A stretch of 64,000 bases of DNA from Octopus vulgaris (lineage: Eukaryota), in contig OX597840.1 in the NCBI GenBank assembly GCA_951406725.2, positions 28,706,001 to 28,770,000 of the forward strand, given 5' to 3'. The notes below the pieces were generated by a model. That model worked only from the letters and a program-made list of their open reading frames with translations, had not been told where the DNA came from and made no database searches. This document shows, piece after piece, positions 4,424 through 46,595 of the stretch. Position numbers and translations under genes: made by a program. Position 1 is the stretch's first letter. Every line of letters begins with the position of its first letter.

Positions 4424-5507
4424 ATGGCTCAATTAAACAACATGTTGGCTCTCGTTAATGTGTTCTATGAAGCTATTAGTAATAACGATGCCGAGAGGGT
4501 TGAAGCCATTCTGAAATACTGTCGCGAGAACCACTGCTGTTACTATCTGGATCTAGATAAGGCGGTCTGTGTAGCGGCTCGCAATGGTGCTACGACTGTT
4601 GTGGAGATGATAATTCTCGGATCACGGCCCTTGCCTTCCCTAATCCATACAGACGAGACGGGTAAGAAAGCCATTCACCATGCTGTGTTAAATGGCAGTT
4701 TGGAACTGGTGAAAATTTTGACCAGGAATGGCTCTGTTCTCAATCGATGCGACTCCGAAGGACAGACCCCTTTATTGCTAGCATGCAACTGTGGGTTCAC
4801 AGACATTGTTCGTTTCCTGATTAGCGAGGGGTCGCATGTAAACCTTTCTCGTAACCACAATGACGAGAGAGCCCTCCACATCGCAGCCGGTGCTGGTCAC
4901 ATTGAGGTGGTCAGGGTTCTGTTGGAAGAGAGCCGAGCAAATATAGAAATTCAAACTCTGTTACTTCAAGGAGGGATGACCCCCTTGCATAAAGCTGTAA
5001 GGAATGGACACCTCGATGTCGTTAGGTACCTGTGCGAAAAAGGTGCTAATGTCGAGGCACGCGATGTTGATAACAAAAGACCGATTCACATGGCCATAGA
5101 CACTGATGCTCCGCAGATTCTCCAGGTTCTCATTGACAACAATGTCGACGTCAATGCTACAGATAAATTCGGTTCATCGCCGCTGCATTATGCCATTCAA
5201 ATAAAGAGTTTGGAAATGGTAAAAATGCTTTTGGAAACGGAGAGGGTAAGCTTAAACCAGCCTAACAGAAGAGGAGATTATCCCTTACATCTAGCCGTCG
5301 CTCGCAGATCTGAAGCCATCACCTTAGAATTGGTAAAAGCTGGTTGCAATATTCATGTGGTATCACCGAACCATGAAACACCATTGCTGCAGGCAGCATC
5401 TATCGGTAGCTACGTGATTGTTGACATTTTGCTGCGACAGGGTGCAAATGTTAATGCGCAGAGCAATGATCGGCTGACGGCATTGCACAAGATACAGTAT
5501 GCACGGT
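4424..5507 (+). CDS. Ankyrin repeat and SOCS box (ASB-like) protein, coding exon 1 (about 9-10 ankyrin repeats)
   Basis: MAQLNN... with repeated TPLH/ALH-x-A...G...LL..GA motifs; donor GCACGGT|gtaagt at 5508, phase 1. The ATG at 4424 is inferred; the ORF-track N-terminus is (TA)n. Confidence 0.92.
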
Positions 5508-5611
5508 GTAAGTATTTTCGAATTATCTTTTTTCCCCTCCATTTTGATTCCAACTTTTTTTCTGTCACCTGATTTGTCATTAAGTTCTGATTGAGCATAT
5601 CTATTCATCCC

Positions 5612-5840
5612 CATCATCATCATCATCATAATCACCACTATCTTTATCATCATCATCATCATAATCACCACTATCTTTATCATCATCATCATCATCATCA
5701 TCAACATCATCATCATCACAATCACCACTATCTTTATCATCATCATCATCATCATCATCATCACCATCACCATCATCACCACCACCATCATCATCATCAT
5801 CTTCATCATCATCATCATCATCTTCATCATCATCATCACC

Positions 5841-5887
<47 letters not shown>

Positions 5888-6005
5888 TATCTTCTTCTTC
5901 ATCATCATCATCATCACAATCACCACTATCTTTATCATCATCATCATCATCCTCCTCATCACCATCACCATCATCACCACCACCATCATCATCATCATCA
6001 TCACC

Positions 6006-6039
<34 letters not shown>

Positions 6040-6136
6040 CCATCATCATCATCTTCATCATCATCATCATCATCATCACCACTATCTTTATCATCATCCT
6101 CCTCCTCCTCCTCCTCCTCATCATCATCATTATCAT
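5612..6136 (+). repeat. (CAT)n/(CAC)n trinucleotide tract near the intron 1 donor
   Basis: Direct reading; gives the poly-His, poly-Asp and poly-Met ORFs. Confidence 0.97.
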
Positions 6137-6221
6137 AAACACACACACATACACATACTATTTTATTGAGGCTGAAGAAAACTTCCACAAGCTGTTACTC
6201 AGATTTTCCTGTAACTCTTCA

Positions 6222-6272
6222 TCACAACTGTCTCATGAATGTTTGCGTGAAACTCTGAGTAACAGGTTGTGA
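6222..6272 (+). ncRNA. Hammerhead motif with mutated core, same family as 4207-4256
   Basis: tcacaactgt-CTCATGA-atgtttgcgt-GAAA-ctctgag-TA-acaggttgtga; G5 changed to C. Confidence 0.6.
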
Positions 6273-6399
6273 AGTTTTTGTTTTACTTGGTGTGTAATAA
6301 AACAGCATTTTAGTCTAAATTTGGGGGATTTGAGTACGAGTTTTAACACCTTGCTTTGCCCTTAGGTGCCTTCTTCTGCATGTATGTATATATAAATAT

Positions 6400-6948
6400 G
6401 ACAATTCAAAAATAAAGATAAAATCTTTATAAGAAATTATCAGTAGTTAGCGTGAAAAACCTCGTAAGAGAAAAAATCTGCAATTTTTTTCACTTTGAAA
6501 ATATTTATTTATATTATATAGAGGGTACTATTATTCATAGGTACCGCACGCTAGGAGGGACTTTTGCAGTCAAAACTACTAAAATAAACAAATTGTACCG
6601 AATGCAAAACTTCAAAGCAAGTCATTTAAAATCAGAATTTAGTTACATATCACCTGTGATTTCGCAATCAATGCAGAATATGCATTCTATGCTCTTCAGT
6701 GCAACGAACTCAAGACATATAAGAAAAAACACAACATCACATACCCGACAGCCAACCGTAGAATTCGCCGCAGCATGTACGAATGTTTATCTTTACATAT
6801 CTATGAAAATGGCGGGCTTATTCGCAATGCATTTCGGTAACAACTTGCCTACTCGGAACAAAAATTCAGTATTGAACTATTCTGGTGAAAAATATAAATT
6901 TAAAAATAAGGATAAAATCTTTATAAGAAATTATCAGTAGTTAGCGTG
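6400..6948 (-). mobile_element. Penelope-like non-coding element with ~50-bp terminal direct repeat and internal hammerhead
   Basis: aaaataa(a/g)gataaaatctttataagaaattatcagtagttagcgtg at about 6409 and 6902; related copy at 25805-26180. Confidence 0.65.
6642..6705 (-). ncRNA. Type-I hammerhead ribozyme, intact core
   Basis: Minus strand gttgca-CTGAAGA-gca[loop]tgc-GAAA-tcac-ag-gtga-TA-tgtaac; all three stems pair. Confidence 0.8.
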
Positions 6949-7314
6949 GGTAGAACTAATGGTCATCACATATTTTACCTTTATTGGAGTGACTTTGACT
7001 TAAAGCTGTTCCCAGTTGTCATTAGAGAATCATTATTGATAGGTTTACTCAGTTGGCAAATTGAATCAGTTGAGGAAAATATGTGGAGTTCTTTACTAAT
7101 CCAAGCAATATTGTTAACCTGGTGTAGTAACAAAGGGCTTATAATATATTTTGCCCAGATTGATAATCTCTCACTAATAACTCTGTTTATATATATATAT
7201 ATATATATATATAGTTAATCCAAACAAGAAAACACAAAGAGAAAACACAACAACGCGAGGACGTTGAACAAGTATAGTATTATTGGACGCTCAGGAAAGA
7301 AGGAGGGTTTAACG

Positions 7315-7680
7315 CTCAAATGGTGCTTTTTATGTGCCACCTGCACAGGAGCCAGTCCAGTGGCACTGACAACGACCTCACTCAAATGTTTCTTACAAGT
7401 GCCAGTAAGGCGACGCAGGTAATGATCACACTTGAATGGTGCATTTTATGTGCCATCGGCACGGAGGCCAGCTTGTTGCTCTGGCAACAATCACGCTCGT
7501 ATGGCACTCTTAGCGCTCCACTAGCACGGATGCTAGTCATCGATTTCGATTTCACTTGCCTCAACAGGTCTTCACAAGCAGAGTTTAGTGTCCAAATGAA
7601 GGAAAGGTACGCATTATATAAGTGGGCTGGTTACACCCCTGGCATAGGCCACGGGTTATGGTTTCATTTACTTCACTCAT
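7315..7680 (-). mobile_element. Repeat family B fragment
   Basis: Reverse complement of the gtggcac(g/a)taaaaagcacc modules seen at 15555, 19460 and 21000. Confidence 0.75.
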
Positions 7681-7714
7681 TGGGGATCTTTTGTACGCTG
7701 ACAATTGCGATCTT

Positions 7715-8757
7715 CTCAGTCATTCTGAAACAGGTCTGCAATTCGTTCGTTTACCTTGGAAGCTCTGTTCAAAATGATGGAAATCTTGATACAGAAATAG
7801 ATCTGCGAATTCAAAGGGCAGCAAAAGCATTTGGTGGCTTGGAGTCCCGCGTTTGGTGCCAGCAACATATAAATAAGAATGCAAAGCTGTCTCTTTACAA
7901 ATCATTTATCTTGCCATCCCTGTTGTATTCCTGTGAAACTTGGACTTGTTATGAAAGGCATTTTAAACTGTTAGAACAATTCCACCAAAAATGCCTTCAT
8001 CGCAAATTAAATGGAGTTCTTTTACTCCAAACACAGATGTCCTTACATCTGCAGGTATCGCCTCAATTAAAGCTATGATTTTGAGGAACCAATTGAGATG
8101 GTCTAACCATATTGTTCGAATGGCAGATGAATGCATGCTGAAACAGCTCTTTTATGGTGAACTTGCAGAAGGGAAACGCTATCAACGTAAACCTAAAAAA
8201 AGGTTTAAGGATAGCATAAGGAGTGCTATGAAGTCACTAGGAATGGTTCCAGAAGATATAGAAACCCTTGCTTCAGATCAAGTTGGATAGCGAACAAAGG
8301 TGTGGAGTGGAGTGAAAGTATTTGAATTGCCAGGATAACACAAATAAGACTCAAAAGAGATCTAAGGCAGAATGTAACAATTGAGAAGGTGAATGACAAT
8401 GACATTTTTGTGTGCACAGTCTGTGACAGATCACACCTGTCTGGCCTCAAATCTCATCTGCGAACGCATGGTAAACAAACCTCCACCAACTATTCTGCCT
8501 ATATGTCTGTGCACACCTTTGAACACAGTGTATGCCAGAAGGTTTGCAAATCCAATGGAGGCCTCAAGAGACATTTTAAGATCCACAAAGATGAGAACCT
8601 AACTGCAGTTCTTGGTGGTCCAAATTGGAGGTGCAATGTATGTGGGTGTCTTTTCAGAAAATTGTCTAGTTTAAAAAGCCACATCAGATGCCATGATGAT
8701 GCTAAGGTGTAGGTACAGGAGGAGGTCAAACTCTGCATAAGAAGTAGACAACCACCA
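7715..8757 (+). mobile_element. 5'-truncated, frameshifted RTE-clade LINE: RT C-terminus plus C2H2-like zinc fingers
   Basis: FVYLGS, RIQRAAKAFGGL, LLYSCETWT, QLRWSNHIVRM, LFYGEL..GKR, then CxxC...HxxxH motifs at 8389-8712. Confidence 0.88.
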
Positions 8758-8945
8758 TATATGTATATGTATGCGCAGGAGTGGCTGTGTGGTAAGTAGC
8801 TTGTTTACCAACCACATGGTTCTGGGTTCAGTCCCACTGCATGGCACCTTTGGCAAGTGTCTTTTACTATAGCCTCGGGCCGACCAAAGCCTTGTGAGTG
8901 GATTTGGTAGACGGAAACTGAAAGAAGCCCGTTGTATATATATAT

Positions 8946-9350
8946 CATCATCATCATCATCATCATCATCGTTTAACGTCCGCTTTCCGCGCTAGCACGG
9001 GTTGGACGGTTTGACCGGGTCTGGGAAGCCAGGGGCCGCACCAGGCTCCAGTCTGAATCTGGCAGAGTTTCTACGGCTGGATGCCCTTCCTAACGCCAAC
9101 CACTCCGTGAGTGGATTGGGTGCTTTTTACGTGCCACCTGCACAGGGGCCGGAGGGTCCGGCATCGTCACGATCGGTTCGAGCATTTTAACGTGTCAGCG
9201 GCACGGGGGCAACGAGGTCCGGGGTACTTTGGGGATCGGGGTACTTTGGGGATCCAGGGTACTTTGGGGATCCGGGGGTACTTAGAATGGGTAGGGGGTA
9301 TGTGGAATTGCTGCAGAAAGCAGCCCGGGTCTTTGTAGTCACAGCATTTA
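8946..9350 (-). mobile_element. Repeat family B (SINE/LINE-tail type) with (GAT)n tail
   Basis: Reverse complement of ttggcgttaggaagggcatccagc...ggaaagcggacgttaaacgatgatg. Confidence 0.8.
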
Positions 9351-9898
9351 TCGTCACTGAGTAACGTAATTAGGTAGAGGAAAGAAATACAGATATTCTA
9401 GAGTTGAGTTGGGGAGGGGGGTCCAGTTGAGGCGGGTAATATAGGGGAGCAACCAGTGGGAAGGTTGGGGTAAGGAGGAACGATGGCAGGAAGGGTTGGT
9501 GTAGGTTCCTAAGAAATAAAAACGTAGGATATTACGAGGCGGGAGGGTACTAAAGGGGATGGTCGGAATGAGGCAGTGTCAGGAGGAAGTGTAAGATCGG
9601 TGGGCAGTTGATGAGCTATGGCGCTAGCAGCTTGTCTTTTCACAGTGAAAGCATATGAGGAGAAGGGGTAGTGGGGGGAGGAGGAGGGAGTAGGGCGTAC
9701 CCGGTGTAGATGAGTAAGGCATATCCGGTGTAGATGGTGAGAACTGGGTATACTGGTATTGGTGGTGGGGGGTGAGAACAGTGTTCACCGGTATTGGTGG
9801 TGGTGGCGGTGAGAACAGTGTTCACCGGTATTGGTGGTGGGGGTGAGAACAATGTTCATCGGTATTGGTGGTGGGGGTGGGGGCGGGCGCACCGCCAC

Positions 9899-10349
9899 TG
9901 GCGGAAAGATGGGAAGAGATGGGATTACGGCTTGAGGCAGCCTAAGGTTAAATTTTGTAGAGAGAGATAGGAAAGATAAATCAAGTTATGGCGAAGGCTT
10001 GAAAGTAGCCTAAAAGGTTAAATTTTCGTAACAGTGTATGAATAAACGTAGTAACAACAAATAAAAAAAGAGTAAGATAAATTTTTAAGAACTTGCTGCG
10101 GGCATCGACCAGGAGTTGAAATTGAAGAAGAAAGTAAGTTGAATTGGCGGAAAGATGGGAAGAGATGGGATTACGGCTTGAGGCAGCCTAAGGTTAAATT
10201 TTGTAGAGAGAGAGATAGGAAAGATAAATCAAGTTATGGCGAAGGCTTGAAAGTAGCCTAAAAGGTTAAATTTTCGTAACAGTGTATGAATAAACGTAGT
10301 AACAACAAATAAAAAAAGAGTAAGATAAATTTTTAAGAACTTGCTGCGG
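9899..10349. repeat. Direct duplication of ~203 bp (9899-10101 and 10145-10349)
   Basis: Near-identical copies differing by one AG unit. Confidence 0.92.
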
Positions 10350-10833
10350 TGTGTGCGTGTATGTTTGTGTGTCTGTGTTTTTCCCCCCTAGCATTGCTTG
10401 ACAACCGATGCTGGTGTGTTTATGTCCCCGTTAATTAGCGGTTCAGCAAAAAGAGACCGATAGAATAAGTACTGGGCTTACAAAAGAATAAGTCCCGGGG
10501 TCGAGTTGCTCGATTAAAGGCGGTGCTCCAGCATGGCCACAGTCAAATGACTGAAACAAGTAAAAGAGTAAAGAGTATATATCTGTCTGTCTGTCTAAAC
10601 TTTTAGCTGTAATATTCCCAGTCATTGTTAATTTAGTTTGACAAATTGATTCAATGAGATGTAGCATAGTAATGTGTTTGTACCATCTCTGGTTGTTTGG
10701 TTGTTTGGCAGGTGATTGATAGATGCTTTTAAATTGCTATTTTTACTTGATCAACAGTATATATATAGCATCTGTGGAGCATTAAGAGTACAGACGGCTT
10801 ATCTGTCTGTCTGTCTCTCTCTCTATCTATCTA

Positions 10834-10868
<35 letters not shown>

Positions 10869-11389
10869 TTCTTCCTACCTACCTACCCACCTTCCTACCT
10901 TCCTACCTACCTACCTACTCACCTACCTCCCTCTCTCTGGCTAATTGATCATCAACTTTTTCAAGTACCACTTGAAAAAGGTGAGAATGGAGAGGCAGGG
11001 TTTGTCTCGTGAAAGTTTCAAAAAAAGGTGGTGTGTGTGAGTGATGAAACCACTTTGAGCATAATCCTGTAAATCAGAAAGAGAGAGAGAGAGAGAGAGA
11101 GAGCACTTTGCTCTCATGTGTTTATTCCCTCTCTGCCCGAGGTTCCCGCGACCTTTTCCATAGGCTTTTCTTTCCACAGAAAAACCTAATCTTACTTCTT
11201 ACATTTTAAAAATTTCTTCTGTGATACACAATCCCTTTTGACCGCCTTTTTTTTTTACCCCAACTCCTTTTGATCGGAATTTTACTTATTTTCTCCCTTT
11301 TTTCCCTTTTTCTTTTTCATTTTCAAAAAGAAAAGCTCCACACTTGTATTTGTCCCCTCTGTGTTCAGCCCTGGGTGGCCAATAAAGTT

Positions 11390-11469
<80 letters not shown>

Positions 11470-11593
11470 ATTCAAATAGAGGTTATATTGGCCTCATGAA
11501 GGGATGGTATCATCTGAGAAAATACTGGTTCAATACCTAATATTTTTGGGGTGAGGTTAATATCCATAAAATAATAGGTTTATATATAAATCA

Positions 11594-11964
11594 TCTCTAT
11601 ATATATAACGGCAAAATGTCTGTCTGTGTGTGTGTGAATCCTTTATACAAATCCACAATTTTTCAGTTAGAGGGCTTGCACTTTCTATGGTCATTCAAAA
11701 CCGTCCAAGGGTGGTCGTGCACATCTTTACATTTCCCCAGTCATCCCGCAAAGCCATTAAAAAACCAATAGAAGTGACTTTTTTGTGAATTTTCTATCCA
11801 AAACCCAATCAAAATGCCCGAAACTTGATACGCCAATTGAATGCCAGCTAGCTGTATGTGATTGGTCGGAGACTTGGACAGTACTCGTGTGTATGTGCGC
11901 ACGCACGCAGCTGTATATGCATGCACTAGCACTATGACCTGGCAACGCCGGGTCATAGTGCTAG
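11594..11964 (+). mobile_element. Non-autonomous Helitron-like element
   Basis: A|TC start, terminal hairpin, CTAG|T end, no TSD; second copy at 13820-14195. Confidence 0.8.
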
Positions 11965-12048
11965 TGGTTTATAATTGTGCAAATGAGCAATAAGAAACTA
12001 GATATTAAAGTTAATAAGAGTTTATTATCAGCAAAACATTGATCATTA

Positions 12049-12128
12049 TTCCTTACAGCTGTTTCGATTAATTTTAGTGAAGTTAACTATTAAAATCATA
12101 TTTCTGAACTTAATCTCTTCAGAGGGAA
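12049..12128 (-). ncRNA. Type-I hammerhead ribozyme, intact core, long stem II loop
   Basis: Minus strand ttccct-CTGAAGA-gattaa[loop]ttaatc-GAAA-cagctg-TA-aggaa; stem III palindromic. Confidence 0.75.
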
Positions 12129-12439
12129 AAAGAAGGCACCCTTATATATTTTGTGTGTTAGTTTTTTGGATCATCATGGCAGACTGAATAATACTGTTTA
12201 TGATTAGTAATGGTGTTTGTCTAGGCGAGGGGGTGAGCTGTAGTATGCAAATATAATTAGGGTAATGAAGAGTAAATAGAGATTAAAGAGAAATTACAAT
12301 GTGAGGAAAGCAGAATATGAATGAGGGGAGGAATTAAATTAGATTTGTAAGTGAGAAACAGAATTAAGAAAAACTTATCTCTGTATATAATTACTCATTC
12401 TTGCTATCGACACGATCATACATTCATCTGTTAATTCAG

Positions 12440-12956
12440 TATACATACATATATACATATTTACATGTAAAAACATACACACACACATATATATATACAT
12501 ATATATATACATACATATATACAAATATATATATATATATATATTTACAGACACACACACATATATACATATATATACATATATACATACATACATATAT
12601 TTATATATATATATATTTACAGACACACACATATATATACATATATACATACATACATATATACAAATATATATATATATATTTACAGACACACACATAT
12701 ATATACATATATATACATATATACATACATACATATATACGTACATACATATATTTATATATATATATATTTACAGACACACACATATATATACATATAT
12801 ATACATATATACATACATACATATATACGTACATACATATATTTATATATATATATATTTACAGACACACACATATATATACATATATACATACATACAC
12901 ACACACACACATATATATACATACATATATACATACTTACACACACACACGTATAT

Positions 12957-13004
<48 letters not shown>

Positions 13005-13357
13005 GAGGAGCATTCACAATTAGTTACATGCATTTACATGTATATATACACATATATTATATACACAATATATCTTTGCACATATGCACATTTATACTCA
13101 TGTACACACATATATATGTATACATATATATATATATGCACATATACATACATATATGTAAAAGTATTGGTTAATATTCACGTTGGCATATACTTTTCAT
13201 CTACAAATACATACACACACTCTCACACATGTAAATGTACATATATACATGCACGTCCATATACATAAATATATGTATATATATACACACATATGTATAT
13301 TCACATACATACACATTTACATCTGTATACACATGCACATTAACACATACGCACACA
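12440..13357. repeat. (TA)/(CA)/(CATA) microsatellite with repeated atatttacagacacacac subunits
   Basis: Subunit recurs five times between about 12543 and 12870. Confidence 0.93.
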
Positions 13358-13359
13358 TC

Positions 13360-13702
13360 TGAGACCCCCTTCAGTCACGACACAGACCATGGGATTTCAA
13401 CTAGGAAGTTCCCCTTTAAGGCACAAGTCCGGGCAAGGTTGTTTATGGAAGACCAGCAGTCACCCATGCATACCGGCCTCCTCTCTCCACGCCACCAGTG
13501 TTATCCAAGGGAAAGGCAGAGGGGCCGATACAGCTTGGTAACTCATTTCTACGTCGCAACTCATTTCTACAGCTGAGTGAACTGGAGCAACGTGAAATAA
13601 AGTGTCTTGCTCAAGAACACAACACTCAGCCCAGTCCGGGATTCAAGCTCACAACCTCACGATCATAAGCTCGACGCTCTAACCACTGAGCCATGCACCT
13701 TC
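13360..13702 (-). mobile_element. tRNA-derived SINE, family D
   Basis: Reverse complement resembles 49836-50145 (ggctcagtggttagagcgtcgagctta...ttcttgagcaagacacttt). Confidence 0.8.
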
Positions 13703-13819
13703 ACATACGCATACATACACATATGTAAATAAGTTTATACTAGTAATCAGTTCATCACGCCTAAGAAAAATGTGATATAGATTGCTTTAGATCAGTTAAA
13801 ATTTGATTGGTTAGTGAAA

Positions 13820-14195
13820 TCTCTCTATATATAAATGGCAAAATGTCTGTCTGTGTGTGTGTGTGTATATCCTTTATACAAATCCACAATTTTTCAGTTA
13901 GAGGGCTCGCACTTTCTATGGTCATTCAAAACTGTCCAAGGGTGGTCGTGCACATCTTTATATTTCCCCAGTCACCCCGCAAAGCCATTAAAAAATTGAT
14001 AGAAGTGATTTTTTTGTGAATTTTCTATCCAAAACCCAATCAAAATTCCCGAAAATTGATACGCCAATTGAATGCCAGCTAGCTGTATGTGATTGATCAG
14101 AGATTTGGACAGTACTCGCGTGTATGTGTGCACGCACGCAGCTGTATATGTATGCACTAGCACTATGACCTGATGTTGCCAGGTCATAGTGCTAG
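13820..14195 (+). mobile_element. Non-autonomous Helitron-like element, second copy
   Basis: Aligns end to end with 11594-11964; A|TC...CTAG|T. Confidence 0.8.
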
Positions 14196-14956
14196 TTATA
14201 AATATTTTTTCAAATCAAGTAGCGTTTCAAGCAAAGTTGGACAGGTTTAACAGTTTATTTAGATTTATTTTTAATAATGAATTAACATTTTATTATTTTC
14301 AATTTTAAGCTGTTCTAATCTAAGAGGAGAGAGAATTGTGTAAAATTTTTTGCATATGGATTTGTTTAAAATTTATTCTTATATAAATATAAGCACCAAA
14401 GTGCACATTTATAAATAATTGGTCGTAAAAGTAAGTTTAAGTGAATAAAGAAACAGGTAATTTGTAAATTGGATGTCTTGCAAACAACTTGCACATGCAA
14501 GTGCTACCAGTCAAAAGCTCCGTATACTGGAAGCCAGCAAGTGTATGGGGTCATCAGGAGAGAATGCGCGCCATTTCGGGGCCTACCTCTCGACGGCATC
14601 AATGCGCACCGGCCCCCCCCTCACTGATATGAGGCCCTGCTTGCTAGATCAACTGGTTATCAAATAAAGCTCAATATTCTTCTAGCCATCGCTCATCGTC
14701 TCTTTTTAACCAAATCCAGTGACTAACCTTCTCCACTGTAGATTGGATATCGGTCATGGTGGTATTGACTTTACGGTGGAAAATGTTCCGCTTTCCAGCC
14801 TGCGTCTTCACATTCCTCGAGGAGGTTTACATAACGGCCAAACTTATTGGTTAGACTTGATTATATATATACAGGCAAGAAATTTGTGTCAATACAGGCA
14901 CAACACATATACACATACATACATACATGCATAAACACATAATATATATATTATAT

Positions 14957-15121
14957 GTACAAGGGGTGGCTGTGTGTTAAGTAGCTTGCTTATGAACCAC
15001 ATGGTTCCGGGTTCAGTCCCACTGCATGGCACCTTGGGCAAGCGTCTTCTACTATAGCCTCAGGCCGACCAAAGGCTTGTGAGTGGATTTGGTAGACGGA
15101 AACTGAAAGAAGCCCATTGTA
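14957..15121 (+). mobile_element. SINE family A, 5' half
   Basis: gtggctgtgtgttaagtagcttgc...ggaaactgaaagaagccc. Confidence 0.85.
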
Positions 15122-15554
15122 TATATGGGAGTGCATATCAGGAATGTGTTTTTGTTGTTAAGGAAGTGTTAATATAGTTATTAATTAAAGGTAGTTTTCT
15201 GAATAATAGTCAACCTGATGTATGTGTTAGATTAAATCAAATAGTTATGAAATTTAGCAATTGTGTATGCTCAAATGTTGGTAGAAGGTTGCTCATGATG
15301 TTTAAAACAGGTTAGGTATAATGGTTGATTGCTTTAAAGGTAAACTAAATATAGGTGTAATGGATGAGTAATATAATATAAATAATAAAATTAAATAATC
15401 AACATGAATATATGTATAAAAAAGAAGATATAAAAAATATAAATATAGAAATATGTGTGCATATCACACCTTGTTTTGTTGTTAAAGATGTGTTGATGTG
15501 GTTATTAATGAAAAGTAGTTGTATAACTAATAGTCAAACAGAAAAAAATGTGAA

Positions 15555-16181
15555 AAAAAACATTCGAGCGAGGTCGTTGCCAGTGCCGCTGGACTGGCCC
15601 CTGTGCAGGTGGCACATAAAAAGCACCATTTGAGCGTGGCCGTTGTCAGTACTGCCTGACTGGCCCCCGTGCCGGTGGCACGTAAAAGCACCCACTACAC
15701 TGTCGGAATGGTTGGTGTTAAGAAGGGCATCCAGCTGTAGATGGAGGCACATGATCTAGTGGTTAGAGCAGCGGACTCGCGGTCGAGGGATTGCGGGTTC
15801 GAATCTCAGACCGGGTGATGTGTGTGTTTATGAGCGAAACACCTAAACTCCACGCGGCTCCGGCAGAAGGTAATGGCGAAACTTCTGCTGACTCTTTCGC
15901 CACAACTTGCTCTCACTCTTTCCTCTTGCATCTTGCAGCTCACCTGCGACGGACTGGCGTCCCGTCCAGGTGGCGAACCTATACGCCAAGGAAACTGGGA
16001 AACCGGCCCTTATGAGCTGGGCAAGGCTCGAGAATGAACAAACAAAAGCAAAACATCCAGCTGTATAAACTCTGCCAGATCAGATTGGAGCCTGGTGCAG
16101 CCATCTGGTTCGCCAGACCTCAGTCAAAATCGTCCAACCCATGCTAGCATGGAAAGCGACGTTAAACTATGATGATGATGA
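15555..16181 (+). mobile_element. Family B element interrupted by a tRNA-derived SINE (15742-16053)
   Basis: TSD catccagctgta at 15728-15739 and 16054-16065; the insert has A/B boxes (tagtggttagagca, ggttcgaatc). Confidence 0.85.
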
Positions 16182-16596
16182 TATGAATATTACCAAGTGT
16201 GTCTGTTCAAAATTTTGATTGATAGTCAAACAGTTATAAAGGTTAGCAATTATGTATGCTCAAATGTTGGTAGAAGGTTATTCTTGGTGTGTACAAAATA
16301 CTAATTAGTATTGGTGATTTTTATAAAATTATGAGACGGCGAGAGGAAAATGGAAAAAAGAAAGAACAGAAATATTAAATGGATGACTGATTTCCACAAA
16401 GGGTTAATAGCAAGAAGTATTGGGGAGAAAGGAAGAGAGAGAGAAAAAGAGAGAGTATTGGTATCTACTCCCCTTTGGTATCCTGGACCAGTTTCTTAGA
16501 ATATATTTTTGCTTGTGTAAGGAGAGTGTAAATTTTCCAATTTGATATTTAGTTGGTATGTAAGGACATTCTGGGCATTAGGCAGCTCCTAAGTGT

Positions 16597-16793
16597 TACT
16601 CTTTTACTCTTTTACTTGTTTCAGCCATCTGACTGTGGCCATGCTGGAGCATCGCCTTTAGTCGAGTAAATCGACCCCTGGACTAGTACTTATTCTATCG
16701 GTCTCTTTTGCCGAACCGCTAAGTTACGGGGACGTAAACATACCAGCATCGGTTGTCAAGCGATGTTGGGAGGACAAACGCAGACACACAAAC

Positions 16794-16853
<60 letters not shown>

Positions 16854-17073
16854 TAATTGTTATCGCCATATTAATATGGCAGTCTTATAGATATAAGACT
16901 AAAAGCTGTCGCTGATTATCTCCATGAGGCCATCGCCTTAAGATAGCTATTTGACACACTTTGACACACAGTTTGTGTGTCAAATAAGACTGCCATATTA
17001 ATATGACGATAACAATTAATTTCCAGTAACGCTGCCGTAATCTCTTTTAGAGAGACTTAGTAATTTTAATATT

Positions 17074-17114
<41 letters not shown>

Positions 17115-17299
17115 TTATATATACATACATATATACGGCAGGCTTCTTTCAGTTTCCGTCTACCAAATCCACTCACAAGGCTTTGGTCGGCCCGGGGGCT
17201 ATAGCAGAAGACACTTGCCCAAGGTGCCACGCAGTGGGATTGAACCCAGGACCATGTGGTTGGTAAGCAAGCTACTTACCACACAACCACTCCTACACC
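16597..17299 (-). mobile_element. SINE family A with a fold-back insert (about 16850-17080) in its internal (TA)n
   Basis: Both halves present; insert arms 16850-16888 and 16984-17022 are inverted. Confidence 0.85.
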
Positions 17300-17640
17300 T
17301 ATTTTCCTCAGTAAACTCAATCCATGTCTGTTGTTGTTGTTGGAGTAAAACTTGCATCTCTCCGATATCCTCAATTTGAACATGATATCCTCAGCTGAAC
17401 ATGTAAACATGTCCAGTGATGTGGAACTGTTTCCTGGCTTGGAAACAAGTGAGGTTTTGTGACAAGAGGGACTTCCGGCCGTAAAATAAAATCTGCCCCA
17501 ATGAATTTTGTTTAACTTATGCAAGCATGACAAAGTGGATGTAAATAGAATGACACCAGGTTCATTTGTTTTGTGACACAATAGAATTCTGCTTACATAA
17601 GCAATATTTCAGTATATTTATGTATGAGTCATCAATATAT

Positions 17641-18056
17641 TACTGTTTTACTCTTTTACTTGTGTCAGTCATTTGACTGTGGCCATGCTGGAGCACCACT
17701 TTTAGTCGAGGAAATCGACCCCAGGACTTATTCTTTGTAAGCCTAGTACTTATTCTATCGGTCGCTTTTGCCGAACCACTAAGTTATGGTGACGTAAACA
17801 CACCAGCATCGGTTGTCAAGCGATGTTGGGGGGGACAAACACAGACATACAAACATATATGTACGCACACACATATATATATATACATATATACGACGGG
17901 CTTCTTTCAGTTTCCGTCTACCAAATCCACTCACAAGGCTTTGGTTGGCCTGAGGCTATAGTAGAAGACACTTGCACAAGGTGCCATGCAGTGGGACTGA
18001 ACCCGGAACCATGTGGTTCGTAAACAAGCTACTTACCACACAGCCACTCCTATGTC
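17641..18056 (-). mobile_element. SINE family A, full length
   Basis: Reverse complement of 39797-40202. Confidence 0.88.
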
Positions 18057-18375
18057 TATATATTTATTTTTCAACACCGATTTTTGTATAAATTAACCTC
18101 TTAGTATTCAGATTACTCTGTCAAATGTAATACTTATTTCTTCGTATTGCTTTGAATTAATCATACATTATCTTGTAGCTCTGAAATTTTGGTGTGTTTG
18201 TTTAGTTTTAGAATGTTGTAGGATAGATATAAAGGGCTGAATATTGCCAGTTTGAATATAAAACAACTGGAATATTTGAGCCAGATATCTTTTCGTGGAA
18301 GAAGATTTATGTTCCTATAACCTGTGTTAATTCTGTAACCCTTTAAAATGGAAGATAAGAAAGTTCATTTCACAA

Positions 18376-18551
18376 ACGGATTAAGTCGATTTTATCGACC
18401 CCAGTGCATAACTGGTACTTATTTAATCGACCCTGAAAGGATGAAAGGCAAAGTCGACCTTGGCGGAATTTGAACCCAGAACGTATCGGCAGACGAAATA
18501 CGGCTACGCATTTTCACCCAGCGTGATAACGATTCTGCCAGCTCGCCGCCT
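18376..18551 (-). mobile_element. SINE family C
   Basis: Reverse complement of gcctttcatcctttcggggtcgat...aagtaccag. Confidence 0.8.
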
Positions 18552-18556
18552 TTTCT

Positions 18557-18855
18557 GTGTCTTCTACTATGGCCTCGGGCCGACCAAACCCTTGTGAGTG
18601 GATTTGGTAGATGGAAACTGAAAGAAGCCCATCGTATATATGTGTATATATATGTGTGTCTGTGTTTTTGTCCCCAAAGTCGCTTGACAACTGATGCTGG
18701 TGTGTTTACGTCCCTGTAACTTAGTGGTTGGGCATAAGAGACTGATAGAATAAGTACTAGGCTTACAAAGAATAAGTCCTGGGGTTGATTTGCTTGACTA
18801 AATGTGGTGCTCCAGCATGGCCACAGTCAAATGACTGAAACAAATAAAGAGAGTA
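18557..18855 (+). mobile_element. SINE family A, 5'-truncated
   Basis: gtgtcttctactat...gactgaaacaa. Confidence 0.85.
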
Positions 18856-18921
18856 TAAACAAATCATTTGTGTAGGTCGTTTGGCAAAAAAACTTAATGC
18901 TCGTTTTCAGCAGGAGTCCAT

Positions 18922-18990
<69 letters not shown>

Positions 18991-19459
18991 CAGCAGCAGC
19001 AGTAGTAGCAGCAGCAGCAACAGCTATCTTCTTAATAACAAGGGTGAAGATTTTCTGAAAGAATCTGTTATAAAACCACCTCTGCAGATCTAAGAGACTG
19101 TTGACCTGTCAAAAAATAGGTCATTAGGTTGTGTCAGGTCAGCTCAGGTCATTAATCAGTGGGAGGTTCTTCCCCCCTCCCACCCCCATAATAATATAAT
19201 CTACTTTTTGTCACTTTGTTATTAATTAATTAATCACTCAATATTGACTGACAGCTCTGTTGGAGGGCAACATCTTAGATGAGCCTCTATGTGGTTGGTG
19301 GATTTGTTAGAAATAGCAGTTGAAGTTCCTCAAATCACACACTCTAATATTAACATTGATTGCCTAACTACTAAGTTTTGGGGATGTGAACAAACCAACA
19401 CTGGTTGCCAAGTGTTTGTGGGCTGGGGAACAGCACAAACATAGAGACATACATACAAA

Positions 19460-19990
19460 TCAATCAAAATCAAAATCGATGACTGGTATCCGTGCTAGCA
19501 GGATGCAAAGAGTACCATACGTGTGTGATCATTGCCAGAGCGGCTAACGGGCTTCCGTGCCAGTGGCACTTAAAAGGCACCACTCGAGCGTGATCATTAC
19601 TAGCATTGCCTTACTGGCACCTGTGCTAGTGGCATGTGTAAAAAGATTCGAGTGAGGTCGTTGCCAGTACCACCTGACTGGCCCCTGTGCCAGTGGCACG
19701 TAAAAAGCACCCTCTACACTCTCAACTGGCTTCGGTGGCATGTAAAAAGCACCAACCAATTGTGGCAATTGCCAGCCTCACCTGGCACCTGTGTTGGTGG
19801 CACATTAAAAGCAACCACTACACTCACGGAGTGGTTGGCATTAGGAAGGGCATCCAGCTGTAGAAACACTGACAGATCAGACTGGAGCCTGGTGCAGCCT
19901 CCTGGCTTCCCAGATCCCAGTCAAACCATCCAACCCATGCTAGCATGGAAAACGGATGTTAAACGATGATGATGATGATGATGACGATGA
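19460..19990 (+). mobile_element. Family B element with (GAT)n tail
   Basis: Repeated gtggcac..aaaagcacc modules then ggaaaacggatgttaaacgatgatg. Confidence 0.8.
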
Positions 19991-20370
19991 CCCTCTCTGT
20001 AACTTCCATCACCTGGTCCAACAGTTTGATACCTCTGTAATTATTTCTGTCTAAAGCACCACCTTTACCTTTGTAGCAGTCGACTACAATGCTGCTGATT
20101 CTTTTGCGGACAACCCGATTAACTGTTCGGATGATTAGATCATAACCTGCACTGCTCGATATTTCATGCATCTCAATAGGGACTCCAGATGGGCTGGGGT
20201 CTGTCCCTGTCTTCATATCCTTCATGGCTTTATCTACCATGCTACTATCTATTCAGGTTGCTGATCCCTCTGTTGGATCCACATTAGGCAGACTCTCCTT
20301 CTCCCATCAGTTCTCTATATTTAGTAGCCTTTCATAGCGGCACTTACAAGCCTCTTTCTTTGCAGAGTCA
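19985..20370 (-). mobile_element. RTE-like LINE fragment (RT N-terminal region)
   Basis: VDKAMKDMKTG..PSG...YKGKG...NNYRGIKLL. Confidence 0.8.
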
Positions 20371-20436
20371 CTAATTAAATGTGAACTATATACATACATG
20401 CATATATATACATGTTTGTATATATGTCTGTATGTC

Positions 20437-20745
20437 TGTCATTATTCAGTTTATTGCACAATTTCTTGCCAATAGAAGAAGAACTGGTTTCTAACCTAAA
20501 TCAAAGGCTCCTTCATTGGAATTTCAACATCAACATCAAGGTGTTTTTGTATGTGTGTGTGTGTGTGTGTGCATGTGCATGTGCGTGTGTGTGTGTGTGT
20601 GTGTTTGTGCATGTGCAGATTTGTATGTTTTATGTATGTATTCTCATGCGTATAGTTACATATCCAGGCATGCTCATATATATTTAAATGATGAACTTCT
20701 GGAAAGTTTTACAGATTTTTACAGTTCCAGTGAGGGATTGGAACT
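20437..20745 (+). repeat. Unclassified interspersed repeat with internal microsatellite; inverted copy at about 43233-43672
   Basis: gtcattattcagtttatt...atatttaaatgatgaacttctggaaa occurs in both orientations. Confidence 0.75.
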
Positions 20746-20755
20746 GTAGTATGTA

Positions 20756-20814
<59 letters not shown>

Positions 20815-20989
20815 ATGTGGAAATTGAATATGTGTGTGTGTATGTATATACATACATATATATATATATAAAAATAGTAATGCAATACGAGAGTATTACT
20901 TTCCAGTAAAGAATAGCCCGTAATTATTACGTTCGCTATTTTCCAGTAAATATCGGTACTTCGTTGTACCATATATTTACTTCTATATA

Positions 20990-21682
20990 TTGGGCCTTAC
21001 TGAAGCAATGACTAGTGACCGAGACCTTTGGAGGTATGTTGTGCTTAAGAAGATCTGACAAGCCAAGTGAGACCATAGCGCATGGCCTATGCCAGTGGGT
21101 GTAAACAGCCCATTTATGAATACCCCTCATTCATTGGACAATAAACTTTGCTTGCAAAGATCTGTTGAGGCAAGTGAAATCAAAATCAAAAGTGCTGACG
21201 TGGCTGACAGTACTGCCTGATTGGCACCCATGCCAGTGGAACATTAAAAGCACAACCAAGCGTGATTGTTGCCAGGGCCCCTGATTGACTCCTGTGCCGG
21301 AGACATGTAAAAAGCACCATTTGAGCATGGTTGTTGTCAGCGTCACCTTACCAGCGTGTGTTCCGGTGGCACGTGATAAACAACATTTGAGCATGGGTGT
21401 TGCCAGTGCCACTGGACTGGTTTCTGTGCAGTAAAAAACACGTAAAAAACACCTTTTGAGTGTGGTCATTCCCAGAACCACCTGACTGGCCCTCATGCCG
21501 GTGGCACGTAAAAGCACCCACTACACTCTCAGATTGGTTGGCGTTAGGAAGGGCGTACAGCTGTAGAAACTCTGCCAGATCAGACTGGAGCCTGGTGCAG
21601 TCATCTGGTTCACCAATCCTCAGTCAAACCATCCAACCCATGCCAGCATGGAAAGTAGACGTTAAACGATGATGATGATGAT

Positions 21683-21685
<3 letters not shown>
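20990..21685 (+). mobile_element. Family B element, long copy
   Basis: Same modules and (GAT)n tail as 19460-19990. Confidence 0.8.
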
Positions 21686-21728
<43 letters not shown>

Positions 21729-21984
21729 TACACATGCATATATATACATATATACATGTGTGTTTGTGTGTCTCCTTGTTGTGGCATCTCATGATAATTG
21801 TAAACAAGCATCCCTGTCATACAACCAGTGTTGTTCTTTTCCAGTCTTCCAGAAATATTACCTTGCCTGGAAGCAGGTGAGGGTTGGTGACAGGATGGGC
21901 ACCCTGCTGTAGAAAATCTGGCTCAACGAATTCTGTTTGGTCTATGTGAGCATAGGAAAGGTGGGCCTTAAAATAACAACAGCA

Positions 21985-22317
21985 TTGTTGATGATGATGA
22001 TGATGGTATTGGTAGTTATGATGATGATGATGACGATGATGATGATAATGATGATGATGATGAGGATGACGATGATGATGATCATGTCAATGATGACAAT
22101 GATGATGATGATGATGATGACGATGATGATGATGACAATGATGACGATGATGATGATGATGATGATGGTATTGGTTGTTATGATGATGATGCCGATGATG
22201 ATGATGGTATTGGTAGTTATGATGATCATGATAACGATGATGATGATGATGGTGGTGATGGTGGTGGTGGTATTGGTAGTTATGATGATGATGTTGTTGA
22301 TGATGATAATGATGATG
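21985..22317 (+). repeat. (GAT)n/(GGT)n tract ending about 50 nt before the exon 2 acceptor
   Basis: Direct reading. Confidence 0.97.
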
Positions 22318-22367
22318 TGAAAGCAAAACTCTTACTGAAATTCTTTCTGTTTCAATCCCTGCTGTAG

Positions 22368-22563
22368 GTAGCCGTGAAGAATCTGATAGGATAATCAGCC
22401 GCTTGCTAGAATTTGGTGCCTACATCAACTGCCAAGACAGTCGTGGCTTCACACCTCTGCATTCTACAGCGTGCACCTGTGTTATGGGGCAGGTGGTACC
22501 TGTCTCCTCTCTCCGGATCCTTATTGGCGCTGGTGCCAAAGTATCACACCACAGTCCGAACAG
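22368..22563 (+). CDS. ASB-like protein, coding exon 2 (not in ORF track)
   Basis: ttctttctgtttcaatccctgctgtag| ... AACAG|gtaagt; translates (C)SREESDRIISRLLEFGAYINCQDSRGFTPLHSTAC...LRILIGAGAKVSHHSPN(R); phases 1 and 2 fit both neighbours. Confidence 0.92.
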
Positions 22564-26627: not shown

Positions 26628-26931
26628 AAACTCTCCACTTTGTTGGCTTGTCTGGAATGGTTGTTTTGAAGCTGCACGTTTTCTGGTCCAAGCTGGTTGG
26701 AACCTAAACCAAGAAGGTTGGATTGATTTACCAGGCAAAACAGAAGAACAATCACGATTCCATGAATGGTTGAAAAGCATGAGATCCTCCCCTTGGACAT
26801 TGTCCTGTCTCTGTCGTCAATATATTCGGAACTATCTGTTAGGGATTCGTGGTGACCGAGAGATCCTGAGTTGCGTCAAAGAACTACCGATTCCAGTCAG
26901 ACTAAAAGGATTCTTAACATATTCAGATTAG
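26628..26931 (+). CDS. ASB-like protein, terminal coding exon with last ankyrin repeat and SOCS box
   Basis: ctctttctcttccacag| acceptor; NSPLCWLV...AARFLVQAG; BC box TLSCLCRQYIR and LPIP (LPxP) cullin box; TAG ends at 26931. Confidence 0.92.
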
Positions 26932-28329: not shown

Positions 28330-30199
28330 CAGGGTTCACCAAACTATGGCCCATGGGCCGGATCTGGCCTGTGAGGTCAGTTCATCTGGTCCACTGCCAC
28401 CGCATTGTACCTTTTGTGTGAATACCTGCTTTGAGAGTTTATTTCTGCAGCGAATGTGTTTTAAAACATTTTCTTCGTGAGAATGTTTGCTGAAAATGAA
28501 TTTGTCACTCATACAAGCTACAAAATAATGCATAAGGAAAACCATTTACTGATGGCAACTTTATCAAAGAGTGTATGATAGAAGCAGTGAATGACTTGTG
28601 TCCTGAGAAAGCTGATTTGTTTGGAAGTATCAGCCTTTCAGCAAGTTCAGTTGCGCAGAGGACAGAGGAACTTGGAGAGAAAATAGTGCTACAGATACAT
28701 GAGAAAGCTAGCAACTTCTTTTGGTATTCTCTGGCACTGGATGAGTCTACTGATCTCTCAGGTACATCACAACTTCTTGTGTTCATTTGTGGTGTTAATT
28801 TGGACTTTCAGGTCACAGAAAAGTTGGCATCTATTTGCAGCATGCACAGAACAAGAATTGGAGGAGGGATTTCCATGGAAGTGCAGAAAACTTAGCAAGA
28901 TGATAACCTGTAGTTGAATCAGTTTTGATGTGTTTCTATTGATGCAGTGGAAAAAAACATGGCTGGAGTGAGGAAGGGTCTGGTGGGGCAGATCAGGACT
29001 AAGTTGGAAGATCTTCAACACCTGGGTGCTCTGTTTATACATTGCATTATACATCAGCAAATACTCTGTGGGAAAGACTTGGATATTTTTTGCGGACTGA
29101 AACCAGTCGTTTCTGTGGTGAGCTTTATTTATTGAAGGAATTGATTCTGAATTCTGTGATTTGCCTTATCACACAGCACTAAAGTATCTCAGCTGCAGTA
29201 AAGTCCTGTTTTGTTTTTATAAGCTCCAAAGAGAAATAGATATTTTTCTCACCGAAAAGGACAAAGGTGATTCTCTTCTGTCAGATCCTACCTGGCTGTC
29301 AAAGTCGTCATTTTTGGTTGACTTCACATCCCACATGAATGAATTGAACTTCAAACTTCAGGGAACGGATAAGCTTATCTGTGATCTCTACAAAATCATC
29401 AAAGGATTTTGGAGAAAGCTATCATTATTTGAAGCACAACTGGAAAGAGGAAAATTCTCTCATTTTCGGTGTTTCAAAGAATTTCACACTGGAATTGCAG
29501 AAGATGTTAACCTAATGTTTCCAAAGAAGATTATTTGTGACTTAAATAAGCATTTTTTTTTTAGAGATTTTCAGATCTCAACAGAACTGAGAGGGACATT
29601 CTTCTGTTCCTGAATCCGTTTGATTGTAACCTTGATGATGTGCCAGTTAAATTACAGTTGGTGTTAATTAGTTTGCAAGCAAATGACTTGTTGAAAGAGA
29701 AGCACGGAGAAGGAAAACTTGTAGAATCTTGTCACTGTTTACCTGTTGATGAGTTTTTCAAGTCGAAGAAATTTGCCTCTGGTATGGCATCAGTGTTTGG
29801 AACAACTTCTGTCTGTGAGCAAACATTTTCAAAAATGAAGGATGTGAAGTCAGCACATCGAACGAGGTTGACTTATGAACATTTGAAAGCAATTCTCTTG
29901 GTCGGATGCAGCAATTCCAAAGCAAATATTGATGACATCTTAAAAGCTTAACACCTGTTTCGCAAATTTCACTAATATTTTTTGCTGCTTAGTTTGTGAT
30001 ATTCAGATATGTGCATACAGGGTATGATATATTTTATTGCTAACGTCCCCTTCTTTGATAACTTTTTAGTAAATAAATGTCAGTTGTCTTTATTTTTTGT
30101 GTAATCACTGTGTTGAATCGAACAAAATGGATATGCAGCCCGCGCTTGTCATTCTCGTAGTTATCTGACCTGTCGTGAAAAAAGTTTGGTGACCCCCTG
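28330..30199 (+). mobile_element. hAT DNA transposon (Buster/Charlie type) with decayed transposase
   Basis: TIRs cagggttcaccaaact / agtttggtgaccccctg; TSD ctctagac at 28322-28329 and 30200-30207; SLALDESTD, IHCIIHQ, YHT..YLS..KVL and FGTT.VCEQTFSKMK across broken frames. Confidence 0.95.
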
Positions 30200-32774: not shown

Positions 32775-32976
32775 CCCTTTAGTATTCAGGTCATTATTTA
32801 TTCACATTGCTTTGAATTAATCATACATTATCTCATACCTTCAAGATTCTACCGATGTCATTGTTTATTTTTATGATGACATTGTAGGATAGGTGTGACA
32901 GGCTGGATATGGCCAGTTTGAACATAAAACAGGTTGAATATTTCGGCCAAATATGACCTGTTTAAATCCTAAAGAG
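32775..32976 (+). mobile_element. Second piggyBac-like MITE family (related copy about 18093-18290)
   Basis: TTAA|ccctttagtattca ... ttaaatcctaaagag|TTAA, imperfect TIR. Confidence 0.7.
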
Positions 32977-34608
32977 TTAAGACACATCTTCCAAATATGA
33001 CCTGTTTAAATGCTAAAGAGTTAAGACACATCTTCCAAATATGACCTGTTTAAATGCTAAAGAGTTAAGACACATCTTCCAAATATGACCTGTTTAAATC
33101 CTAAAGAGTTAAGACACATCTTTTAAATATGACCTGTTTAAATGCTAAAGAGTTAAGACACATCTTCCAAATATGACCTGTTTAAATGCTAAAGAGTTAA
33201 GACACATCTTCCAAATATGACCTGTTTAAATGCTAAAGAGTTAAGACACATCTTCCAAATATGACCTGTTTAAATGCTAAAGAGTTAAGACACATCTTCC
33301 AAATACGACCTGTTTAAATCCTAAAGAGTTAAGACACATCTTCCAAATACGACTTGTTTAAATCCTAAAGAGTTAAGACACATCTTCCAAATATGACCTG
33401 TTTAAATCCTAGAGTTAAGACACATCTTCCAAATACGACCTGTTTAAAACCTAAAGAGTTAAGACACATCTTCCAAATATGACCTGTTTAAATGCTAAAG
33501 AGTTAAGACACATCTTCCAAATATGACATGTTTAAATCCTAAAGAGTTAAGACACATCTTCCAAATACGACCTGTTTAAATCCTAAAGAGTTAAGACACA
33601 TCTTCCAAATACGACTTGTTTAAATCCTAAAGAGTTAAGACACATCTTCCAAATATGACCTGTTTAAATCCTAGAGTTAAGACACATCTTCCAAATACGA
33701 CTTGTTTAAATCCTAAAGAGTTAAGACACATCTTCCAAATATGACCTGTTTAAATCCTAAAGAGTTAAGACACATCTTCCAAATACGACCTGTTTAAATC
33801 CTAAAGAGTTAAGACACATCTTCCAAATACGACTTGTTTAAATCCTAAAGAGTTAAGACACATCTTCCAAATATGACCTGTTTAAATCCTAGAGTTAAGA
33901 CACATCTTCCAAATACGACCTGTTTAAAACCTAAAGAGTTAAGACACATCTTCCAAATATGACCTGTTTAAATGCTAAAGAGTTAAGACACATCTTCCAA
34001 ATATGACCTGTTTAAATCCTAAAGAGTTAAGACACATCTTCCAAATACGACCTGTTTAAATCCTAAAGAGTTAAGACACATCTTCCAAATATGACCTGTT
34101 TAAATGCTAAAGAGTTAAGACACATCTTCCAAATATGACCTGTTTAAATGCTAAAGAGTTAAGACACATCTTTTAAATATGACCTGTTTAAATGCTAAAG
34201 AGTTAAGACACATCTTCCAAATATGACCTGTTTAAATCCTAGAGTTAAGACACATCTTCCAAATATGACCTGTTTAAATGCTAAAGAGTTAAGACACATC
34301 TTCCAAATATGACCTGTTTAAATCCTAGAGTTAAGACACATCTTCCAAATACGACCTGTTTAAAACCTAAAGAGTTAAGACACATCTTCCAAATATGACC
34401 TGTTTAAATGCTAAAGAGTTAAGACACATCTTCCAAATATGACCTGTTTAAATCCTAAAGAGTTAAGACACATCTTCCAAATACGACCTGTTTAAATCCT
34501 AAAGAGTTAAGACACATCTTCCAAATATGACCTGTTTAAATGCTAAAGAGTTAAGACACATCTTCCAAATATGACCTGTTTAAATCCTAAAGAGTTAAGA
34601 CATATCTT
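32947..34608 (+). repeat. Minisatellite, 38 units of 44 bp (five are 42 bp)
   Basis: Unit ccaaata(t/c)gacctgtttaaat(g/c)ctaaagagttaagacacatctt; 38x44-10 = 1662 bp matches the span. Confidence 0.98.
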
Positions 34609-40417: not shown

Positions 40418-41328
<911 letters not shown>

Positions 41329-46239: not shown

Positions 46240-46516
46240 AGCACCTGGGCCTCATTGGGCCTCAAGGAAGCAGTGACAGGTGACAAAGACCTTTGGCGAT
46301 ATTCTGTGTTTGTGAAGTCCTGTGTTGCCAAGTGAGATCATAGTTATGGCCGACGCCGGTATCTCGTAGCAAGTACCCGCTATACTCTTGGAGTGGCTGG
46401 TGTTAGGAAGGGCATCCAGCTGTAGAAACCATACCAAATCTGATTGGAACTTGGCTTACTGGTTTTCAGTCAAACCGTCCAACCCATGCCAGCAAAGAAA
46501 GCGGACGTTAAATGAC

Positions 46517-46550
<34 letters not shown>

Positions 46551-46595
46551 TTGATGATGATGATGATGATGATGATGATGTTGATGGTGATGTTG

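Follow-up and report, generated by a model that had tools for sequence, protein, structure and literature searches.

Within a 64,000-nt stretch of the Octopus vulgaris genome, hereafter the window (assembly GCA_951406725.2, contig OX597840.1, positions 28,706,001 to 28,770,000 of the forward strand), lies an ASB-like gene in which Pfam recognises ankyrin repeats and a SOCS box, and whose 16.9-kb intron is bracketed by a long (CAT)n tract and a long (GAT)n tract that are complementary to one another. This tract pair is a real and rare arrangement. A first-pass annotation of the sequence had suggested that the tracts might pair as an RNA bridge, by analogy with a class of fish introns; our analysis indicates that they are probably a by-product. 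The explanation that we consider likely is that the two tracts are independent slippage expansions of ATC-class microsatellites, which came to lie inverted by chance in an intron whose splice sites would suffice without them.

Complementary tracts at the two ends of a 16.9-kb intron

The gene and its tracts are arranged as follows, in window coordinates:
4424..5507, plus strand: coding exon 1 of the ankyrin-repeat and SOCS-box (ASB-like) gene (tblastn of P0001-P0003, Pfam Ank, contigs)
5508..22367, plus strand: GT-AG intron of 16,860 nt, full of mobile-element pieces (in-frame join; the loose ends of two RNA-like contigs resume at 22371)
5612..6136, plus strand: (CAT/CAC)n tract, 525 nt, 175 units, 82% matches (Tandem Repeats Finder, TRF)
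21989..22317, plus strand: (GAT/GGT)n tract, TGA/GAT, 329 nt, 110 units, 75% matches, directly behind a dispersed repeat (TRF)
22368..22563, plus strand: exon 2 (tblastn, contigs)
26628..26931, plus strand: coding part of exon 3, carrying the SOCS box (tblastn, Pfam)

The CAT tract begins 104 nt past the donor GTAAGT (5508), while the GAT tract stops 50 nt short of the end of the acceptor AG (22367). The remaining (CAT)4+ or (ATG)4+ runs in the intron measure 12-24 nt, so that both arms far exceed all others of their class there, and the two arms are complementary at 79% across 338 nt by blastn. The positions, the approximate lengths (525 and 330 nt), the rank within the intron and the mutual complementarity claimed at first pass are thereby confirmed. 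Within the CAT tract, 107 of the 175 triplets are CAT and an 18-nt interruption motif occurs four times; the GAT tract has a 15-nt interruption motif that is unlike it. A third long (GAT)n tract, of 344 nt (46512-46855), lies beyond the coding part of the gene and directly follows what looks like the 3' end of a retroelement.

The exon layout was obtained by tblastn: exon 1 is 97% identical to an O. bimaculoides protein, and the joined exons are in frame. In two of four sequencing runs, from two studies, contigs depart from the genome at 5510 and resume at window position 22371; both of these runs are RNA by guess only, and three letters at the joint fit both sides. Contigs from the remaining two runs follow the intron sequence. 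The junction-crossing contigs imply that the 16,860-nt intron is real and that it is without an internal exon in those contigs. Its earlier description as the first intron holds for the coding sequence; one contig extends further, by 166 nt upstream of 4404, and the gene may have another intron in the 5' untranslated region (UTR). P0001, the ortholog of 4424-26931, is labelled a latrocrustotoxin by one source. Since Pfam and another source give an ankyrin and SOCS-box protein, that name is likely an automatic misnomer. The intron contains a single weak ratchet-like AG/GT site, at 10712, which is no evidence for recursive splicing. It also holds fragments of long interspersed nuclear elements (LINEs) at 7967-8709 and 19962-20252, in which Pfam finds C2H2 motifs, and which we take to be reverse transcriptase (RT)-like, their RT having no Pfam match.

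The 3' tract follows a dispersed repeat with GAT-tailed relatives

The GAT tract is most likely an expanded retroelement tail. We read it in this way because a dispersed repeat precedes it, and because copies of that repeat, together with a related family, are GAT-tailed. The repeats that flank the two arms are these:
21776..21988, plus strand: dispersed repeat in a decayed state, probably the 3' end of a retroelement without long terminal repeats (non-LTR) that carried a (GAT)n tail (repeat matches, tails, a common 39-nt box)
6178..6278, no strand assigned: old palindromic dispersed repeat behind the CAT tract, possibly akin to miniature inverted-repeat transposable elements (self-inverted match; 67-92% matches at other loci)

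The repeat at 21776-21975 is old and dispersed, with 1580 candidates genome-wide, 40 of which were scored (71-88% identity), and short ATGAT-type tails end five of the 11 other copies that were read. The repeat at 21776-21988 has a 39-nt box in common with an abundant tailed family, in which a GAT tail is present on 188 of the 201 copies reaching the family's 3' end. In two copies of this main tailed family, an RT-like C-terminus, which we take to resemble that of RTE elements, precedes the family sequence. These data bear out a caveat of the first-pass annotation, namely that the 3' tract may be the tail of the repeat at about 21780-21975. In published accounts, the octopus element RTE-2_OV is described as ending 3' in a microsatellite (PMC9115989), and SINEs (short interspersed nuclear elements) as the dominant octopus repeats (PMC9068888).

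The arms can pair in silico and show no co-adaptation

The claim that the arms can pair holds in silico, where they fold to a duplex of 286 bp at -381.9 kcal/mol, with a longest unbroken stretch of 24 nt. They are not co-adapted. The true pair reaches 275 bits, as compared with 272+/-8 bits when the triplets of the 3' arm are shuffled (100 shuffles), and its folding energy compares with -375.5+/-4.2 kcal/mol for 30 such shuffles, the best of which reached -383.9. Pure (CAT)n as a partner gives 346 bits, above the true pair; the unrelated tract at 46512 out-pairs the true 3' arm at -452 kcal/mol; and the arms have no interruption motif in common. Shuffling the triplets of the 3' arm is a stricter control than the dinucleotide shuffle of whole introns used by Lin et al.

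The intron also contains inverted pairs of mobile elements, among them the following (blastn; no strand assigned):
7312-7669 with 21065-21463: inverted element pair, -422 kcal/mol
8945-9189 with 19743-19990: inverted element pair, -383 kcal/mol
10349-10582 with 17635-17872: inverted element pair, -373 kcal/mol
17644-17971 with 18557-18861: inverted element pair, -506 kcal/mol

Of six such pairs tested, three equal or exceed the duplex of the arms (-506, -422 and -383 kcal/mol) and three are weaker (-373, -325 and -322 kcal/mol). Repeat-directed editing is widespread in the introns and UTRs of coleoids (PMC9068888).

Ordinary splice signals and the fish precedent

Both splice sites look ordinary. 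The donor reads GT/GTAAGT, and the acceptor is composed as follows:
22338..22367, plus strand: pyrimidine tract, 17/22 nt pyrimidine, and TAG acceptor (reading of the sequence)

Local folding gave no sign of pairing that frees this pyrimidine tract. In the (AC)m-(GT)n bridging class of teleosts and lamprey, as set out by Lin et al. (2016, PMC4691745), AC and GT peak at the two intron ends and co-occur across introns, and the requirement for bridging was shown by mutation. The pyrimidine tract is missing in 61% of the zebrafish class, and independence from U2AF2 is a further mark of bridged introns. Across fish, the class accounts for 0.09-2.29% of introns; bridged introns typically have narrow, mid-range lengths, and individual instances are poorly conserved (PMC4691745). 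Our literature search, which covered sources in part, found no report of ATC/GAT bridging in cephalopods.

Tracts at splice motifs across the genome

Motif counts were made on the forward strand of the 2.8-Gb genome, with one count per motif. Within 100 nt after MAGGTAAGT, (CAT)8 was found 32 times and (ATG)8 eight times. Because the body of an element cannot lie in an exon, this 32:8 asymmetry is predicted by tail geometry as well as by a bridge, and antisense element tails make up 19 of 40 CAT tracts after donor motifs. Before acceptor motifs, few of which are real acceptors, the counts were 46 for GAT and 37 for CAT (p=0.38), with element tails making up 19 of 38 GAT tracts. The acceptor-anchored sample of 38 loci carries little weight, as roughly one to three of them looked like real acceptors; at the one clear case, a cadherin acceptor (L161), there is no CAT in the 9.4 kb upstream. 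Long tracts follow AGGTAAG 52 times as CAT and 71 times as GAT at about 109,000 sites, which places long CAT arms at about 0.05%.

A short-range test used a donor motif and two tracts with gaps of at most 250 nt, the acceptor not being part of the pattern. Within 250 nt after the donor motif, counting both strands, CAT-then-GAT occurs at 11 distinct sites and GAT-then-CAT at 10; these donors thus have no class of short introns like that of fish. Reversed-pattern controls were left out, as they count a different repeat class. We also noted a large repeated unit at G000:C27:4.35-4.41 Mb (L073, L118-L120), present three times at a spacing of 23-30 kb. In every unit a long CAT tract comes after a donor-like motif; the two tracts that were read measure 375 and about 880 nt.

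Co-occurrence of the two tracts within introns

For 99 loci in which a CAT tract accompanies a donor motif, taken from among the matches listed, we read the next 9.4 kb downstream; 21 MAGGTAAGT matches and 370 long-tract AGGTAAG matches lie outside this sample. Exons were called with our own codon and splice model and checked with Pfam. This resolved 24 introns, the upstream exon having a Pfam match, in some cases weak, in 14; in three of the 24 the next exon is uncertain, yet no (ATG)5 occurs anywhere in the 9.4 kb. Most of the loci left out had no credible upstream exon (on that ground, eight of the first 18 were not extended), and in about 11 further plausible ones the next exon was not identifiable (L054, L063, L068, L172, L182, L185, L222, L224, L245, L251 and L257). 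L261, where 249 nt of GAT precede a possible 52-nt exon, was set aside as well, since our search found it no upstream exon.

In this sample, 22 of the 24 introns with CAT near the donor are without a GAT arm, and same-sense CAT stands at the acceptor in two or three of the 24. A second, strongly bracketed intron was found in an SLC23-like gene (L057 and L114; G000:C22:25,644,660-25,662,895, plus strand; 18,235 nt), between exons matching Pfam positions 219-305 and 306-386. Its CAT/TAT tract spans +34 to +760. At the other end, the tails of tandem element ends make up a GAT cluster that stops about 85 nt before the acceptor. The arms match over about 120 bp at 80%, and the pyrimidine tract is intact. 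The region is rich in such tracts, with a local chance of a GAT arm of 1%, and in the next intron of the same gene a same-sense CAT tract lies near the acceptor, in the wrong orientation for a bridge. In the 4.4-kb intron of L189 (TTC39), a 27-nt GAT tail stops 229 nt before the acceptor.

No GAT partner was found for a 379-nt CAT arm in a 1.5-kb intron, nor for a CAT arm of about 270 nt in a 95-kb intron of a gene that we take to be like heparan-sulfate 3-O-sulfotransferase (HS3ST), and in three introns of its paralogs, each about 130-175 kb long, there is neither a GAT arm nor a long CAT arm. The cluster of two-exon paralogs with Pfam Sulfotransfer_1, which we presume to be HS3ST-like, spans G000:C7:49.5-76.1 Mb (L081, L262-L268), with introns of about 95-175 kb. 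Just two of the resolved introns are clearly longer than 9 kb, one with a partner and one without, so the proposed class of long introns is under-sampled.

Among 92 other predicted exons in the 99 loci, acceptors have CAT in four cases and GAT in one (that one being the L057 partner), and donors have CAT in five and GAT in none. Taken over both intron ends, sense CAT thus exceeds GAT by 9 to 1. This suggests that tailed elements tend to lie antisense in introns, but it may be clustering, since a sense CAT tract was what the loci were selected for.

If the genome has some 200,000 introns, as we assume, we estimate that 100-200 have a long CAT arm. The chance of a matching long GAT arm is 0.14-0.2% per intron when pooled and 0.4-1% in tract-rich regions, and 0.15-2 double-armed introns per genome are thus expected by chance.

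Weighing the explanations

If the tracts are independent expansions, as we consider likely, retroelement tails and other ATC seeds would grow by slippage, and the seed of the 3' tract would likely be a decayed retroelement's (GAT)n tail. With the element body excluded from the exon, tails would read CAT after a donor and GAT before an acceptor; such exclusion would therefore yield the orientation of a bridge without selection. This intron would have happened to receive long tracts at both ends, and would be spliced by ordinary exon definition with ordinary signals, while the duplex, if formed, would be one of several long inverted-repeat duplexes in the pre-mRNA and may be edited passively. 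Several results weigh against this explanation. Behind the 5' tract we found no antisense body of a tailed element, only the palindromic repeat. CAT is enriched after the strong donor motif: a control motif gives CAT 21 and GAT 29 (Fisher p=5e-4 against 32:8), its GAT count being inflated as it lies partly in element bodies, and tails account for only about half of the CAT tracts after the donor motif. GAT near the acceptor occurs in 2 of the 24 CAT-donor introns as compared with 0.16-0.37 expected (p=0.011-0.054, depending on thresholds that were set after seeing the data) and with none of 91 other predicted acceptors (Fisher p=0.04). The SLC23 intron was found among only 11 resolved long-arm donors, and with two double-armed introns now known, the range expected by chance covers them only at its upper end.

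A selected RNA bridge, confined to a small class of long introns and bringing donor and acceptor to within about 150 nt of each other, seems unlikely to us; it keeps the probability that we give it because chance reaches two cases only at that upper end. A nearly unstructured CAT arm would wait on the nascent RNA and pair with the GAT arm 16 kb later, with retroelement tails as the raw material and selection retaining complementary arms where they lie at the two ends of a long intron. The predicted 286-bp duplex of -382 kcal/mol and the lack of self-structure modelled for the CAT arm are consistent with this, as are the second case (18.2 kb, SLC23), the nested inverted element pairs, which would aid loop closure, and the fish precedent, where individual instances are poorly conserved (PMC4691745). 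The co-occurrence check proposed at first pass gave uneven results: the excess of pairs is borderline, whereas acceptors carry same-sense tracts as often as complementary ones and the short-range counts are balanced. The analogy with fish bridges failed to find support in most tests, given the lack of co-adaptation, the intact pyrimidine tract, the lack of a short-intron class and the 22 of 24 introns without a partner, to which may be added the partnerless CAT arm in the 95-kb intron, the wrong-orientation CAT in the next SLC23 intron and the narrow, mid-range lengths of bridged fish introns (PMC4691745).

It is more doubtful still that the CAT arm alone acts as a protein-binding splicing element, through the YCAY motif of Nova/Pasilla, with the GAT tail incidental. 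The tract does place 136 overlapping YCAY downstream of the donor, CAT is enriched after donor motifs (including five of the 92 other predicted donors, with GAT at none), and sites for Pasilla are over-represented on the downstream side of exons that it enhances (PMC3165201). However, tail geometry and an antisense element bias would yield an equal asymmetry, about half of the tracts being tails; the Nova map covers cassette exons, whereas a large first coding exon is concerned here; and many YCAY contacts are nonfunctional (PMC3165201). We regard it as very improbable that a single event, such as duplication in inverted orientation or an element whose two ends carry inverted microsatellites, made both arms, or that errors of assembly produced the tract lengths. 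The arms are indeed of unusual length for this intron, and their lengths are those of the assembly; yet the interruption motifs are not shared, which speaks against a common origin, the flanks are unrelated, the interruptions in both tracts are structured and non-random, and contigs of two other organisms extend as far as the start of the tract, where the repeat cuts them off.

Were the bridge real, octopus would have made a trinucleotide RNA-bridge system out of (GAT)n retroelement tails, serving a few long, element-filled introns. This intron and that of the SLC23-like gene would be the earliest known examples, and no repeat-bridged intron would have been known before them outside fish and lamprey and across distances of more than 10 kb; this is a prospect to which we give little credence. 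Repeat-mediated splice-site pairing would then have arisen again in an invertebrate, from mobile-element tails and across 17-18 kb, giving cephalopods a route to splice bloated introns and to make long ADAR substrates. For now, the evidence offers a lesson of method: tail geometry alone gives CAT after donors and GAT before acceptors, and because it thereby mimics a bridge, genome-wide tests need within-gene shuffles and a tail model.

Other features

Elsewhere in the window are broken open reading frames (28536-29948), which we take to resemble a hAT-type transposase and two pieces of which were tried with no Pfam match, together with three homogeneous tandem arrays: 44 bp x 38 (95%) at 32947-34619, (TTA) x 301 at 40418-41337 and 17 bp x 31 (96%) at 51228-51756. 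Outside it, at G000:C12:28.43-28.61 Mb, about ten kinase matches lie in tandem, in long open frames, the largest of which has 1,759 aa.

Comparison with known systems

The octopus intron shares with the AC/GT bridges of fish the presence of complementary simple repeats at opposite intron ends, in the looping orientation and less than 200 nt from the splice sites (104 and 50 nt). It differs in that its arms are trinucleotide, hundreds of nt long and 16.9 kb apart, in that the pyrimidine tract is intact, as it is in the SLC23 intron, and in showing no sign of a common class in octopus. Intronic inverted-repeat duplexes edited by ADAR are familiar from inverted Alu pairs. The likeness here is a predicted long imperfect duplex of inverted repeats within one pre-mRNA; the difference is that the arms are microsatellites, 16 kb apart, with no unbroken stretch beyond 24 nt. 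Like the YCAY clusters bound by Nova/Pasilla, the CAT tract places dense YCAY downstream of a 5' splice site, although the octopus exon is not a cassette exon. The last comparison is with the microsatellites that arise from the 3' tails of RTE-clade LINEs and of their SINEs. The tail here, of 329 nt, is far longer than the 12-30 nt found in most, and the 5' tract is without a detectable body, while the likeness lies in the 3' tract, which follows a dispersed repeat whose copies bear tails of the GAT type.

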